A stretch of DNA of 64,000 bases, taken from assembly GCA_963769025.1 (NCBI GenBank), contig CAVYKI010000010.1, forward strand, positions 1-64,000, given 5' to 3'. Below the pieces are notes generated by a model. The model ran no database searches, was not told the DNA's origin, and saw only the letters and a program-made list of their open reading frames with translations. This document shows positions 12,983 through 17,757 of this stretch, one piece after another. The stretch comes from an uncultured Verrucomicrobiae bacterium. Its GTDB lineage: Bacteria; Verrucomicrobiota; Verrucomicrobiia; Chthoniobacterales; Chthoniobacteraceae. Position numbers and translations under genes: made by a program. The first letter of the stretch is position 1; each line of letters opens with the position of its first letter.

Positions 12983-13195
12983 TCACGCAAACGCGAGCCT
13001 GCCTTTTGGCTCGGGGATCGGCCATGATGCTTCGCGCGCGGCAGTGAGATACGCGTCAATCATCTCCTCGGCATTGCGCAAAGCTTCAACCCGTGTCGCT
13101 CCATCAGTGACGATGCTCGGAAGCTCAGGCACTTCAGCAAGGAAGTGGCCATCCTGCTCGCTCCAATAAACGACGACCTCGAATTTGTTGTTCAT
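12983..13195 (-). CDS. hicB: HicB family antitoxin
   Basis: FEVVVYWSEQDGHFLAEVPELPS..TDGAT..EALRNAEE..PIPEPKG. Confidence 0.92.
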   Translation of the reverse strand: MNNKFEVVVYWSEQDGHFLAEVPELPSIVTDGATRVEALRNAEEMIDAYLTAAREASWPIPEPKGRLAFA

Positions 13196-13437
13196 AGTAG
13201 CTGGTTGTTTTGAAGCGCTTTGCGGGCCTGCCGGACTTGATAAGCTTTAGCTTTCCCGCCCTGCGGTTGCAAGTTGATCGCTTCGGCCATGCCGGGCTTC
13301 CGGAAAAAATGATGGCTTCCCGCGATGCGCATTTCAAAGCCGAGCCTCTGGAGCAACTGACACATCTCAGCGAAGTCCCACGCGGCATCCCGCTGCGGGT
13401 CACGCAACCGCTCCAGCAATTTGTCGTGTTTGCTCAC
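13192..13437 (-). CDS. hicA: HicA family toxin (mRNA interferase)
   Basis: LLQRLGFEMRIAGSHHFF...INLQP..GKAKAYQVRQ; overlaps the thrS stop and the hicB start. Confidence 0.9.
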   Translation of the reverse strand: MSKHDKLLERLRDPQRDAAWDFAEMCQLLQRLGFEMRIAGSHHFFRKPGMAEAINLQPQGGKAKAYQVRQARKALQNNQLL

Positions 13438-15965
13438 GCACGCCGCTCTCTGATCGCCGCAAGGATGTCCGCCACCGCCTCGTCGCGTTTCTTCGCGCCT
13501 TGCGGGCCTTTGCCGTGGATGCGAACGCTCACATTTCCCGCTTCCAGATCGCGTCCGCCGATGACGAGCATGTGGTGGACTTTCATCGTCTCGGCATTTG
13601 CGATCTTGGCTTTGATGGGTTCGTTCAGCGCGTCGAGCGTCGCGCGCACTCCCGCGGCGCGCAGCTCGGCGACGATGCCCTTCGCGTAGGCGAGCAGCGG
13701 CTCATCGTCCCCGAGCGTGAGCACGCGCACCTGCTCGGGCGCGAGCCAGAGCGGGAAATTGCCGGCGTAGTGCTCGATGAGGAAGCCGATGAACCGCTCG
13801 TGCGTGCCGAGCGGCGCGCGGTGGATGCAGAGCGGCGTCTTGTCCGTGTTGTCGCGGTCGCGGTAGGTGAGGCCGAATTTCGCGGGCACGGCGAAGTCCA
13901 CCTGGTTCGTGGCGATGGTGAATTCGCGGCCGATGGCGCTCCACACCTGCACGTCAATCTTCGGGCCGTAGAACGCGGCCTCGTTCGGCACCTCGATGTA
14001 GTTGATGCCGCTGCGCTGGAGGACGCCGCGGACCATGTCCTCGGTCTTCAGCCACAGCGCGGAGTTGTCCACGAACTTCTGGCCGAGCTTCGCCGGGTCG
14101 TGCGTGGAGAAGCGCATGAGGTATTTCTCGATGCCGAAGATTTTGAAATACTTGAGATACATCTCGTTCACGGCATTGAACTCGGACTCGAACTGTTCCT
14201 CGGTGAGGTAAATGTGCGCGTCGTTCATCTGCATGGAGCGCACGCGCATGAGGCCGAAAAGTTCGCCGCTCTGCTCGTAGCGGTAGCAGGTGCCGTATTC
14301 GGCGAGCCGCAGCGGAAGGTCGCGGTAACTGCGCGGCACCGCTCCGAAGAGCTTGTGATGGTGCGGGCAGTTCATGGCCTTGAGGTAGTAGCGGTCTCCA
14401 GTCGCCGTGGTAAAAGAAGGCGCGTCGTCCGCGGGTTTGCGTGCCTCGGGTAGGGTGGGCGTCCCGCCTGCCGTGCCGGGCGTCCCGCCTGGCACATCGG
14501 ACGTGGGACTGGCTCCCGCCTGCACATCCGGCGTCCAAACCCATGGATAGTTCTCCTCCGGCCCAACGAGATTCTCCCCGCGCGGATTGTTGCAGATGTA
14601 GAGAAACTTCTCCTCCAAATCCGAATCCCCGCGCACATAGCGATCGTATCGCTCCTGCTCCCACACCTCGCCCGTCGTCCCCTCCGCCTTGTTGATTTCC
14701 TTCGCGGTGAAACTCTTGATCGAGTGCATCAAATCGCCGAGCGGCCAGAACACGCTTTCGTCTTTCGCATTCTTCTCCTTTACCCACGGCTGAAGCAAAA
14801 AATGGACGTGATCGGGCATGACCACGGCGGCGAACAGTTCGTAGCGGACCCCGTGGAAATGGCGGAGAGCATTCAGGACGATGGTGCGCGCATCCGGCGA
14901 GAGGACGCGGTGGTCTCGCGTGGAGACGGTGACGAAATAGATCGCCCACGGTTTTTCGAAGTGCGGGAGGCGGCGGTGTTCCTTTTCGTAACGAACGCCT
15001 GTCGTGCGTTCGGATGTGCCAGGCGGGACGCCCGGCACGGCAGGCGGGACGCCCACCCTACCCGAGGCACTGCCCTTCGCCATTGGCGCGCCTGTGGTTC
15101 CCGCGCGCTCGTTTTCCAAAATCATCGGCGGGAACATGCTCTCCGCGTAATACGGCAGATGCCCGCTCGTGAGATACAGGTTCTCCCGCGCGAGGTGCGG
15201 CGTGCGCACGCGGTCGTAGCCGGCGGCGAACTCGGTTTCCTTCGCGAGCTTTTCGAGCTCCTCCAGCAGCACCGTGCCGCGCGGCAGCCACAGCGGCAGG
15301 CCGGGGCCCACGTCGTCGTCGAACGTGAAAAGCTCCAGCTCCTTGCCGAGCTTGCGATGGTCGCGCTTCTTCGCCTCCTCGAGCATCGTGAAATACTCGT
15401 CCATCTGCGTCTTGTTCTTGAACGCCGTGCCGTAGATGCGCTGGAGCTGCGGGTTTTTCTCGTCGCCCTTGTAGTAGGCGCTCGCGACGTGCGTGAGCCG
15501 GAACGCGCCGATGTTCCCCGTGCGCATGACGTGCGGCCCGGCGCACAGGTCGAGGAAGTCGCCGTTGCGGAAGAGCGAGATTTCCTCGCCCTCGGGGATG
15601 TCCGCGAGGTTGCCGATTTTGAATTTGCTCGGATTGCCCGGCCGCTCGCCGAGCCCGCCGAGGCGTCCGCTTTCCGCGAGCTTCACCGCCTCGTCGCGCG
15701 ACACAACCGTGCGCTCGAAGACGTTGTTCGCCTTGATCTCCTTTTTCATCTCCTCCTCGATGCGCGCGAAGTCCTCCGGCGAGATGCGGTGCTTCAAATC
15801 CACGTCGTAGTAAAAGCCATTCTCCACCGGCGGCCCCGCGGCAAACTGCGCCTCCGGCCAGATGCGGAGGATGGCCGTGGCGAGCACATGCGCCGCGCTG
15901 TGGCGCAGCCGCTCAAGGTCGGTCATCTGGTGGCGTTGCTCGATGGTCTTGCGTTCGTCGGACAT
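13434..15965 (-). CDS. thrS: Threonine--tRNA ligase with an in-frame insertion of about 235 aa
   Basis: RHSAAHVLA, DLCAGPHV, RDHRKLGKEL, MNCPHH, GLMRVR, EAAFYGPKID, HRAPLGTHERF, WLAPEQVR; no stop across 843 codons. Confidence 0.97.
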   Translation of the reverse strand: MSDERKTIEQRHQMTDLERLRHSAAHVLATAILRIWPEAQFAAGPPVENGFYYDVDLKHRISPEDFARIEEEMKKEIKANNVFERTVVSRDEAVKLAESGRLGGLGERPGNPSKFKIGNLADIPEGEEISLFRNGDFLDLCAGPHVMRTGNIGAFRLTHVASAYYKGDEKNPQLQRIYGTAFKNKTQMDEYFTMLEEAKKRDHRKLGKELELFTFDDDVGPGLPLWLPRGTVLLEELEKLAKETEFAAGYDRVRTPHLARENLYLTSGHLPYYAESMFPPMILENERAGTTGAPMAKGSASGRVGVPPAVPGVPPGTSERTTGVRYEKEHRRLPHFEKPWAIYFVTVSTRDHRVLSPDARTIVLNALRHFHGVRYELFAAVVMPDHVHFLLQPWVKEKNAKDESVFWPLGDLMHSIKSFTAKEINKAEGTTGEVWEQERYDRYVRGDSDLEEKFLYICNNPRGENLVGPEENYPWVWTPDVQAGASPTSDVPGGTPGTAGGTPTLPEARKPADDAPSFTTATGDRYYLKAMNCPHHHKLFGAVPRSYRDLPLRLAEYGTCYRYEQSGELFGLMRVRSMQMNDAHIYLTEEQFESEFNAVNEMYLKYFKIFGIEKYLMRFSTHDPAKLGQKFVDNSALWLKTEDMVRGVLQRSGINYIEVPNEAAFYGPKIDVQVWSAIGREFTIATNQVDFAVPAKFGLTYRDRDNTDKTPLCIHRAPLGTHERFIGFLIEHYAGNFPLWLAPEQVRVLTLGDDEPLLAYAKGIVAELRAAGVRATLDALNEPIKAKIANAETMKVHHMLVIGGRDLEAGNVSVRIHGKGPQGAKKRDEAVADILAAIRERRA
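14441..14498 (+). repeat. Inverted repeat arm (GTAG-REP plus a second hairpin)
   Basis: GTGCCTCGGGTAGGGTGGGCGTCCCGCCTGCCGTGCCGGGCGTCCCGCCTGGCACATC; exact reverse complement of 15013-15070. Confidence 0.95.
15013..15070 (-). repeat. Inverted repeat arm (partner of 14441-14498)
   Basis: 58/58 reverse-complement match. Confidence 0.95.
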
Positions 15966-16008
15966 AGGAAAAGGGCGGCGAAGCTAGGCGAGCCGCGGCG
16001 CAGGCGCA

Positions 16009-16117
16009 AGGGTAGGGCGCGCTCGCCGAGCGCGCCCCAACTTTTGCGGAGGGGCTTCGAGAAACGGCAGGCGCGGGGTAGGATGCGTGGGCGCTTTCGG
16101 CGAAAGCGCCCTACCCT
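16009..16117. repeat. REPIN (inverted pair of GTAG-REPs) upstream of thrS
   Basis: AGGGTAGGGCGCGCTCGCCGAGCGCGCCC (16009-16037) and inverted AGGGTAGGGCGCTTTCGCCGAAAGCGCCC (16089-16117). Confidence 0.8.
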
Positions 16118-16129
16118 GGCGCCCCGCGG

Positions 16130-17630
16130 TCACTGCGCGTCGAGCGCGCGGATGGGGAAGAGGTCCGACTTTGTGTGCTGCTCCTTCATCAGGGCGCTGA
16201 GCTTTGCGACCACGTCGGGATGATTGTCGGCGACGTCGTTGCTCTCGCCGATGTCCTTCGCGAGGTCGAAGAGCTGCGGGTCGCGCGGCTTCAGCTTCGC
16301 CTTCGGGCCGCCGTGGAGTTTCTCGAGGATGAGCTTCCAGTCGCCGACGCGGATGCACGCCTGCCCGCCGTAGCCGGGCGATTCGCGGTAGAGGAAAGGC
16401 CGCGGCTCCTGCGGCTTGCCGAGGAGCGTGGGCGCCATGCTGATGCCGTCGATGCCCGCAGGAGTGGCGGCCTTTTCGCCGATGAGCTCGAGGAGCGTCG
16501 GCATCCAGTCCTCGAACCCGCTCACGCGATCGCTCACGGTGCCAGCGGCGATGCGGCCCTTCCAGCGCACGATGGTCGGCACGCGAATGCCGCCCTCGAA
16601 CATCGAGCCCTTGCGCCCGTTCAGCGGCCCGGCGCTCTCGAAGAAATCCGTGTCGGTCCCGCCGAGCTTGCCGTAGAGCGGGCCGTTGTCGCTGGTGAAG
16701 ACGAAGATGGTGCGCTCATCGAGGCCGAGTTCCTTCACGAGATCGGCCAGACCGGCCAATCTCGCGATCCATGCGCGTGACCATCGCGGCGTACGCAGCG
16801 CGCGGGGCACGATGCGGCAGGTAGCCATTGCCGCCGGGATAGGGCTCCTCGGGAAATTTTCCCGCATACTCCGTGAGCGAATCCTCCGGCACCTGCAGCG
16901 CGAGGTGCGGCACGGTCGTGGGGTAGTAGAGGAAAAACGGGCGGTCCTTGTTGTCCTGGACGAACTCCAGCGCCTCGGCGCTGATCAGGTCGGGCGCGTA
17001 GTCCTTGCCGGAAAACTTGCGCGTAGGTCTCCGAGGAATTCGAGATCGGCGCCCTCGGCGAGTTTCTGGTGCGCGGAGAATGCCGGGTTGTCCAGGGCGC
17101 GCTTCTTGTCGTTGTCCCAGAGGTGCGTCGGGTAGTAATTGTGCGCGACGCCCTGGCAGTTGTAGCCGAAGAAACGGTCGAAGCCCTGCTTCAGCGGATC
17201 GCCCGTCGAGCCCACCGGACCGAGGCCCCATTTTCCAAAACCGCCGCTCGTGTAGCCGAGCTTTTGCAGCGTGAGCGGGAAGGTCAGTTCGCCCGCGGGC
17301 ACGGGCGTCTGTCCTTCCTCCCACTTCGGGTCGAGCGCCTTTGCGTTCCCGTTGTCGCGGATGAATGCGTGGCCGGGGTGCTTGCCGGTCATGCAGCACG
17401 CAGCGCGACGGCGCGCAGACGTTGTTGCCCGAGTAGTGCTGCGTGAGCTTCATGCCCTCGGCGGCGATGCGATCGATGTTCGGCGTGCGGATCTTTTTCT
17501 GCCCGAATGCACCGACATCGCCGTAGCCCAGATCGTCGGCGAGGATGAAGATGATGTTCGGGCGCTGCTCCGCGGCGTGCGCGACAGCGGCGAGGAGGAG
17601 CGATGCGAGGAGGAAACGCGGTGCTTTCAT
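16130..17630 (-). CDS. Arylsulfatase (formylglycine-dependent), split by at least 3 frameshifts
   Basis: [54 protein letters not shown] spread across three ORFs; shifts near 17393, 17030 and 16760. Confidence 0.85.
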
Positions 17631-17692
17631 GGGAGGAGGCGATATGGAGTGGGCGCGCGGGGAGTGCAAGCGGAGGCTGCGACCGCCAAGCG

Positions 17693-17757
17693 GCCGCCGG
17701 GAGGAGGCGGGGCCTTCGAATTGGAATCTCAACCCGCCTCCTTCCGCCGGCGGCTAC
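17693..17757. repeat. REP pair (GTAGCCGCCGGCGGAAGGAGGCGGG family)
   Basis: Full REP on the - strand at 17733-17757 and a degenerate inverted arm at 17693-17711; near-identical copy at 25070-25094. Confidence 0.7.

Follow-up and report, generated by a model that had tools for sequence, protein, structure and literature searches.

An in-frame REP-RAYT-REP cassette, probably mobile, inside the threonyl-tRNA synthetase gene of a verrucomicrobial genome

The threonyl-tRNA synthetase (ThrRS) gene thrS of an uncultured Verrucomicrobiae bacterium of the family Chthoniobacteraceae carries a tyrosine transposase of the REP-associated type (RAYT) in frame inside its catalytic domain. The gene lies in a stretch of 64,000 nucleotides (assembly GCA_963769025.1, contig CAVYKI010000010.1, positions 1 to 64,000), referred to here as the window. 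The insert is a whole cassette, consisting of a GTAG hairpin, that is, a repetitive extragenic palindrome (REP), a RAYT domain and an inverted REP. From the sequence comparisons described below we consider it likely that this is a mobile cassette, fused in frame to a working ThrRS, which only rarely relocates itself, is filtered by reading frame and has spread laterally. Together, these results suggest that a class of enzyme regarded as unable to move itself does move, as an unspliced passenger domain of essential proteins. The host gene and the cassette are organized as follows.

13434..15965, minus strand: thrS::RAYT, a single open reading frame (ORF) of 843 codons and the only thrS found in the genome
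15123..15965, minus strand: N-terminal half of ThrRS, aa 1-281, with the editing (SAD) domain and the start of the catalytic domain, ending in MFPPM
14400..15122, minus strand: in-frame insert (aa 282-522), borne on the tip of a two-strand hairpin (modelled strands 281-283 and 524-528)
15010..15070, minus strand: N-side 61-nt arm, with outer flank, GTAG (15061-15058), REP hairpin (15039-15057) and second hairpin
14520..14990, minus strand: RAYT (TnpA-REP) domain, aa 326-482, without a stop of its own
14441..14501, plus strand: C-side 61-nt arm, the inverted copy, with GTAG (14450-14453), REP hairpin (14454-14472) and second hairpin (14473-14495)
13437..14399, minus strand: C-terminal half of ThrRS, aa 523-843, with the remaining catalytic domain (C533, H584, H715) and the anticodon-binding domain

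The ORF matches the ThrRS family TIGR00418 in two stretches, with 567.9 bits against a cut-off of 383.65. MFPPM begins at aa 277 and GDRYYLK at 523, which leaves 241 residues between them, at a site equivalent to about residues 319-326 of E. coli ThrRS. Of 150 ThrRS representatives returned, 41 lacked an anchor; in 85 of the 109 that could be measured, the stretch running from SGH to the KPMNC-type motif spans 19-22 residues, against 258 here. An original prediction, made from the letters alone, had already described a RAYT in frame within thrS, a 241-residue insert where ThrRS normally has a short loop, an HUH motif at 14802-14810, YICNNP at 14583-14600 and a transposase domain without a stop; all of this agrees with our analysis, in which a single frame stays open through the insert. 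Its figure of about 633 aa for an insert-free product was too high, since 602 residues plus the 11-14 aa loop of relatives give about 613-616 aa. C533 and H584 are invariant and H715 is at least 90% conserved in 117 sequences, and the three would be zinc ligands, as in E. coli ThrRS. The prediction had named a second, normal thrS as a reason for doubt, and none was found by tblastn of this genome, which is 83% complete. As this is the sole thrS copy found, we infer that its product would aminoacylate tRNA with the insert in place.

The same-site fusion is present in 16 genomes from six family groups of the order, and the ThrRS::RAYT proteins retrieved form 67 clusters at 90% identity; because of this recurrence the fusion is not a chimera. 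In a sample of 401 genomes, a thrS-borne RAYT occurs in at least 15 of the 250 with a strong thrS match, a lower bound for which the best 30 loci were opened and whose denominator includes two genomes flagged as unpublished (G203 and G188), which enter no other result. Automatic JGI protein names read 'threonyl-tRNA synthetase/REP element-mobilizing transposase RayT'. The N-side junction is bridged by an independent contig (run X7, 15067-15364, 7 differences), and the C-side junction by none of the 32 pieces listed from sequencing runs. Many frameshifts are found in other contigs of the assembly, and the thrS::RAYT ORF is intact. In RNA run X15, contigs lie on both thrS halves with no depth over 14522-14991; this gap has no bearing on expression, since contigs cannot show absence and the strain may hold another allele. 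One X15 contig, with its joint at 14504-15016, has both arms joined by 35 other letters, so that the sample contains a REPIN that has these arms but no RAYT. A search of sequencing runs found no run with half of the query words.

The RAYT domain retains the residues expected for catalysis, H386-V-H388 at 14810-14802, Y456 at 14600-14598 and N460, and the two histidines, the tyrosine and the asparagine are invariant in 26 of 26 aligned fusions. In profile searches, NF047646 (REP_Tyr_transpos) matches residues 335-475 of the whole protein with E 1.2e-20, and the insert alone scores 79.2 bits (E 2.8e-22), just short of the cut-off of 80, free-standing relatives scoring 78.7-79.6; Pfam Y1_Tnp, which the original prediction had proposed for such a search, matched the insert weakly (19.5 bits, cut-off 23). 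The TnpA-IS200 profile NF033573 gave 19.5 bits, well below its cut-off of 55. The two arms are complementary at 60 of 61 nt (98%), and each contains GTAG, a stem of 8 bp with a loop of 3 nt, and a second hairpin. On each strand a REP starts the unit and an inverted REP ends it, both read in the thrS frame: the N-side arm is translated as SGRVGVPPA, within a disordered linker, and the C-side arm, read on the opposite strand, as AGGTPTLP. Some 85 of the 241 insert residues are non-transposase, the two translated arms included. Furthermore, RNA pairing prediction pairs the arms end to end around the RAYT coding region. Both arms were located by rule in 15 of the 16 thrS cassettes; among the 80 closest loci introduced below, one version of the rule located them in 58 and another in 55. 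Judged by its sequence, this is probably a mobile unit of the form REP-RAYT-inverted-REP and amounts to a REPIN with a transposase gene as its spacer.

In some thrS cassettes (L103, L109, P0014, P0041) a further REP or pair of REPs, also in frame, lies next to or within the unit. An internal start is conceivable at M295, 7 codons ahead of the REP-encoded Ser-Gly, although it is not conserved and would leave the domain without a stop. A sub-threshold match to a CRISPR-repeat Rfam family (22.4 against 39 bits) was rejected.

The predicted structure agrees with this organization. In the main AlphaFold2 model, a monomer without tRNA built from 117 sequences, the mean predicted local distance difference test score (pLDDT) is 87.6, both ThrRS and RAYT are folded, and linkers 294-339 and 482-520, which score under 50, leave from the tip of the two-strand hairpin. 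The model matches S. aureus ThrRS (1nyq_A) with Z 52.0 over 572 of 642 residues at 2.8 A, and the ThrRS fold is thus kept in the modelled fusion. A first model, built from 26 close sequences, failed in the catalytic domain (pLDDT 53.5) and was used for the RAYT domain alone (pLDDT about 70-88); its residues 338-483 have E. coli TnpA-REP (4er8_A) as best match, with Z 12.7, rmsd 2.9 and 130 of 165 residues aligned, ahead of IS608 TnpA with Z 11.5. The original prediction had named structure prediction as a check. Foldseek with the first full-length model had only ThrRS entries among the matches listed, and the RAYT match was not among the matches listed in the fold search with the main model; the insert sequence matched no PDB chain (best E 0.59), the fold search alone giving a match.

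The sequence comparisons show selection on both the protein and its DNA ends. The Tyr motif is found in 67 of 67 ThrRS::RAYT clusters. A strict HUH pattern matches 62, and inspection shows H-x-H in four of the other five as well, giving 66 of 67. The median ratio of nonsynonymous to synonymous substitution (dN/dS, Nei-Gojobori, 16 loci, 120 non-independent pairs) is 0.17 for RAYT (39 unsaturated pairs) and 0.165 for ThrRS (116 pairs), and for the closest pair to this gene 0.093; by this measure the RAYT core is under purifying selection and is conserved as strongly as ThrRS. The GTAG ends, for their part, are conserved as DNA. In 13 of 13 cassettes the C-linker Leu is encoded by CTA, which makes up 1.8% of Leu codons in the ThrRS halves; for the N-linker Gly the codon is GGT in 13 of 13, compared with 7.2% of Gly codons. 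The positions were picked by protein motif, which left out the 3 of 16 cassettes without the motifs, and this codon test was preferred to counts of stem pairs, a circular form of evidence since the arms had been chosen by a pairing rule. The two arms of one cassette resemble each other more than arms of different cassettes do, with 94% against 72% identity in 15 thrS cassettes (0 of 10000 permutations) and 92.6% against 73.2% in 55 of the 80 loci (0 of 5000), although kinship among loci inflates this significance.

We examined the 80 closest loci, one genome per species, which are the best 80 of 192 confirmed and are all titled Verrucomicrobiota. In 76 of them the RAYT lies in frame inside a host gene (recG 55, thrS 13, alaS 6, metH 1, MmeI-type 1), so that the Y1-type domains which the original prediction suggested looking for in other housekeeping ORFs do exist. 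The remaining four are free-standing. Their 3' REP lies 68 nt past the core and their stop farther out, at 84-90 nt, which implies that the cassette itself is open from end to end. More distant RAYTs of relatives reside in carB, in clpB and in class I tRNA synthetases of the Leu, Val and Ile types, a RAYT fusion to an aminotransferase also exists, and two RAYT domains at separate sites are present in eight proteins, of which six are AlaRS, one is MetH and one is a class I synthetase.

In a RAYT tree of 36 rows, thrS-resident copies were rejected as one clade by the approximately unbiased test (p-AU 1.8e-6). The MmeI copy has one thrS copy as its sister (99/90) and an alaS copy has another (99/92), one alaS copy is nested among thrS copies, and three thrS cassettes belong to a second RAYT lineage with a different REP type. 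This tree was preferred to one of 134 rows, which gave long-branch warnings and in which one row or more carried a wrong label (P0047 is RecG by Pfam). DNA homology between a thrS and an alaS cassette covers 613 columns and ends 8-9 nt outside GTAG on both sides, and that of the window's cassette ends at the same place on the one alignable side. The outer consensus, three pyrimidines and GG followed by G(T/G)AG, fades past -5 and fits cleavage at CT-type sites as described in PMC8266576. That thrS residents do not form one clade, and that homology ends just outside the REPs, indicates that the unit moved; within the reach of trees and alignments, past movement of the unit between unrelated genes is shown.

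The ThrRS loop that holds the cassette behaves as a variable slot. Among 51 thrS loci with both anchors, which were picked by score and consequently over-represent RAYT alleles, 16 have RAYT cassettes, 25 have other inserts of 53-125 aa and 10 have 11-42 aa. The 25 long non-RAYT inserts comprise one family of 6, one pair and 17 singletons, and in 25 of 25 the GC content at third codon positions (GC3) is below that of the gene. For 20 of them there was no Pfam match above cut-off and for one no Atlas match, and none matches this genome (G000). A REP-like hairpin was detected in one of the 25; among the short alleles the rule found one in three (in one of them at both ends), and inverted palindromes were seen by eye in two more. 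A family of 83-aa inserts, 78-100% identical (L010, L012, L013, L014, L028, L031), occurs on separate branches of the ThrRS tree, which implies that non-RAYT fillers also move or persist across lineages.

A tree of insert-free ThrRS (45 rows, six loci without the N-terminus being left out) requires 9 changes of the RAYT label, at least 4 of them forced, and rejects the RAYT-bearing sequences as one clade (p-AU 4.4e-6). Furthermore, thrS genes with 94-99% identical flanks hold different inserts. The thrS of genome G012 contains an unrelated 86-aa insert, and 824 of 843 nt upstream and 589 of 600 nt downstream match the thrS of the window (1413 of 1443); beyond the downstream match identity drops to 285 of 353, and the control genes ugp and clpB are 85.8% and 87.7% identical between the two genomes. 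This pattern points to recent recombination between species across the thrS slot, and in these alignments rapid exchange of loop content between species is shown.

Two further observations concern such slots. The last 350 nt of thrS (13437-13800), in the part for the anticodon domain, have about 70-88% identity to relatives where the remainder has 98%, and look as if separately exchanged. In this genome, alaS (C3:813850-814160) and carB (C9:1203760-1203990) have lower-GC non-RAYT inserts at or near the sites of relatives' RAYT cassettes, their frames being blurred by indels.

Our preferred reading, a rarely relocating in-frame cassette, would operate as follows. With no stop between its ends and an open frame through both hairpins, the cassette would borrow the transcription and translation of its host gene. 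Translation would yield a single protein of 843 aa, with a normally folded ThrRS to which the RAYT is tethered by two disordered linkers, each of about 40-45 residues. The tethered RAYT could bind the GTAG hairpin in single-stranded DNA and cut and rejoin within the pyrimidine run a few bases outside GTAG, and the long arms, by folding back, might bring both ends together, so that the cassette would occasionally be copied or moved. Landings in essential genes would survive only in frame and in tolerant loops, and loss would require an in-frame event, a situation shared with inteins except for the splicing. The thrS-resident allele would travel between species by homologous recombination in the conserved flanks, where it would compete with other fillers of the slot. 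A wider version of this reading, which we put forward tentatively as a possibility and hold with less confidence, is that the RAYT lineage is an autonomous mobile element, an 'autonomous REPIN', with essential proteins as its main habitat, expression only as a fusion, movement from one permissive loop to another by its own single-strand cutting and rejoining, and spread between species on host alleles; its nicking may even drive a loop turnover that captures unrelated foreign peptides. The original prediction had proposed a non-intein in-frame passenger that avoids selection by its position. The non-intein passenger in a tolerant loop of an essential gene is supported, and the avoidance of selection is not, given a dN/dS of 0.17 and the motifs that are kept; while it had seen the RAYT, the REP arms, the movement between genes and the hypervariability of the loop were overlooked.

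Several observations weigh against this reading. The grouping of RAYTs by host gene is strong (0 of 500 shuffles gave so low a value) and same-family pairs are sisters, so that moves must be rare and residence long. This genome has one copy of the cassette, with no recent identical copy elsewhere in it. A target site or duplication could not be read, as empty and filled alleles are too diverged, and no empty allele was near enough to give the exact junctions. Movement could also have come about through REP recombination by another RAYT or by host enzymes, and the purifying selection on RAYT could in part reflect the need to stay folded within an essential protein. Full confidence in catalysis is tempered by Glu464 at the position of E. 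coli His123, and by the lack of an obvious counterpart of the E161 tail of E. coli TnpA-REP (PMC3479197); structure and cleavage rules are described in PMC3479197 and PMC8266576. The exchange at the slot is not unique to thrS: carB is 91.8% identical to that of G012 overall, with peaks of 96-100% on both sides of its own variable stretch, and the background is consequently uneven. Finally, the 24-nt REP core has 2 exact copies in the genome and 3 within three mismatches, and a looser pattern has 8 matches; with such a handful of copies, this RAYT does not tend a large REPIN population.

Other REP-like sequences are present in the genome. REPIN-like pairs related to the arms of the thrS cassette lie at C3:92730-92884 and C3:895447-895600, apparently upstream of genes. 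Two nearly identical free-standing RAYT genes of another subfamily (C10:513349-513768 and C13:35611-36030) have on their flanks the repeat that is most abundant in the genome, at about 37 copies; that one RAYT is present twice is unusual in itself. Just upstream of thrS, at 16003-16123, there is a different GTAG-type inverted hairpin pair, the 23-nt palindrome of which has 45 hits within one mismatch, a sum over both orientations that corresponds to perhaps half as many sites.

The best-surviving alternative, which we nevertheless regard as unlikely, is that a domesticated RAYT is kept for a host benefit unrelated to ThrRS, such as the processing of single-stranded DNA, with host genes as expression platforms and relocation as a rare accident of REP recombination. 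Strong purifying selection is in line with it, as is long residence in some lineages (recG accounts for 55 of the 80 loci). So is the absence of a close relative of this RAYT from phages and plasmids, where three remote plasmid matches were the only ones found, as for the vertically kept RAYTs of 10.1101/2021.07.10.451892. A domesticated gene is nevertheless hard to reconcile with its patchiness, at least 15 of the 250 genomes with a thrS match having the RAYT in that gene and 22 of 61 relatives having no RAYT match to this query, or with near-identical thrS flanks that elsewhere hold an unrelated insert. Nor would a stationary gene obviously need REP ends that are attached, matched and conserved as DNA. 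The subfamily itself is narrow, being present in 5 of 301 genomes of a phylum-wide sample.

Somewhat less probable still is that the slot is kept hypervariable by selection on the ThrRS surface, for instance against a phage protein or toxin, RAYT being one filler among others whose nicking may aid turnover. The non-RAYT inserts at 25 of 51 loci, all of lower GC3 than the gene, the different inserts between 94-99% identical flanks and the similar slots in carB and alaS would all be expected under such selection. It leaves unexplained, however, why catalytic residues and GTAG are retained, and a REP-like hairpin in just one of the 25 long inserts provides no tie to RAYT activity. We know of no such antagonist. 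Diversifying selection is, moreover, compatible with a mobile cassette and does not exclude it.

Removal of the insert before or after translation, by looping-out of mRNA between the 61-nt arms, by splicing or by proteolysis, so that the working ThrRS lacks it, is very unlikely, even though pairing of the arms end to end in the mRNA would enclose the RAYT coding region. Pfam searches at E 0.1, with the protein and with the insert, gave no intein domain, the junctions PPM|ILE and TAT|GDR lack Cys/Ser and His-Asn, and Rfam gave no intron family; the frame is open through both arms in 16 of 16 cassettes, and the fusion folds in the model. Slightly more doubtful again is recruitment of the RAYT fold as an accessory domain of ThrRS for binding hairpins or tRNA, an idea encouraged by a nucleic-acid-hairpin-binding fold beside the active site and by the many tRNA synthetases among the hosts. 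RecG, MetH, the MmeI-type enzyme and the aminotransferase also have the domain, however, its gain or loss in thrS is a repeated event (9 changes, of which 4 or more are forced), its linkers are long and disordered, and selection extends to the DNA hairpins. The domesticated nuclease tethered to a synthetase that the original prediction had offered is likewise improbable as a ThrRS-specific function, since most relatives lack it at this site and the cassette family resides in unrelated hosts. A chimera made in assembly, or a dead insertion into a gene copy that is not used, as might be suspected from the frameshifts in other contigs, the C-side junction left unbridged by the pieces listed and a genome 83% complete, can be dismissed in view of the same-site fusion in 16 genomes and 67 clusters, the intact ThrRS motifs, the lack of another thrS among tblastn hits and the independent contig over the N-side junction.

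Among the neighbouring genes, those at 12983-13437 on the minus strand, where GC falls to 0.56-0.58, are a HicA toxin gene (PF07927, above cut-off), which overlaps the thrS stop, and a HicB-like ORF below cut-off that follows it; in one protein cluster (P0433) ThrRS, RAYT and HicA occur within a single protein. On the other side, a sulfatase gene (16130-17732, minus strand) is split over at least three frames, and its frameshifts may be assembly errors. A scan for promoters and terminators gave matches no better than chance.

If the reading of a mobile cassette is correct, the fusions would fill a gap by showing, from comparison, that a REP-RAYT-REP unit can change its address, and a unit of about 630 bp with one enzyme and two ends would be a small, defined substrate for direct tests of self-mobilisation. 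An essential enzyme would tolerate a 240-residue unspliced nuclease beside its active site, and loops of housekeeping genes would be marked as exchangeable slots, which matters for annotation and for the use of thrS as a phylogenetic marker in this order. Should the autonomous REPIN prove true, it would represent a third way of life inside essential genes besides introns and inteins, one that does without splicing. In the literature searched, which covers few subscription journals, we found no account of RAYTs nested in housekeeping genes; supplements may list such cases. In one survey, unexpectedly long RAYT proteins were discarded as fusions or errors, and in-frame REPs were noted inside RAYT genes of subclass 2.4 (PMC6006769).

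The cassette can be compared with several known systems. The known REPtrons lie free-standing outside other genes and reportedly do not move as a unit (PMC3333891, PMC3479197, PMC8266576). With the E. coli REPtron (TnpA-REP, 4ER8) it shares HUH and a single Tyr, H386/H388/Y456/N460 corresponding to H59/H61/Y115/N119, the fold (Z 12.7) and the GTAG tetramer at the foot of the hairpin, and its REP has the geometry of the S. maltophilia group 3 REPtron, where GTAG is followed by an 8-bp stem and a 3-nt loop (PMC8266576). It differs in that its REPs are translated, the unit lies inside essential genes, and the host gene has changed. REPINs are non-autonomous and extragenic, reach hundreds of copies and accompany RAYTs whose tree follows the host (10.1101/2021.07.10.451892). 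REPIN-RAYT systems share with the cassette an inverted REP pair around a spacer, a covariation of RAYT lineage and REP, and the lack of a close phage or plasmid match; here, however, the spacer is the RAYT, REP copies are a handful, and the RAYT tree does not follow the host gene. Intragenic REPs and the Rickettsia palindromic elements are likewise translated palindromes in housekeeping proteins, tRNA synthetases included; intragenic GTAG/CGTC REPs encode 20-82 aa, and the highest intragenic GTAG count was that of the verrucomicrobium O. terrae. Unlike the thrS cassette, these consist of the repeat only, with no transposase alongside (all PMC3733652).

Like IS200/IS605 elements (2vhg, 2ec2), the cassette has an HUH/Y1 fold (Z 11.5 and 10.3), hairpin ends and the form of an autonomous unit. 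It is set apart by its score with NF033573 (19.5 against 55), its long inverted-repeat ends with GTAG and its one copy in the genome, and the model matches IS608 TnpA to residue 448 only, compared with residue 483, past the Tyr helix, for 4ER8. With inteins that have homing endonucleases the cassette shares its habitat: a nuclease is carried in frame by conserved essential genes, the sites recur, some alleles are empty and others filled, and spread is lateral. In contrast to inteins, the cassette has no splicing domain and its passenger stays in the protein, where its nuclease would act on its own single-stranded hairpin ends and not on a double-stranded empty site. The cassette resembles a REPtron or an IS200 element in its chemistry and an intein in its habitat, and is a full member of neither.

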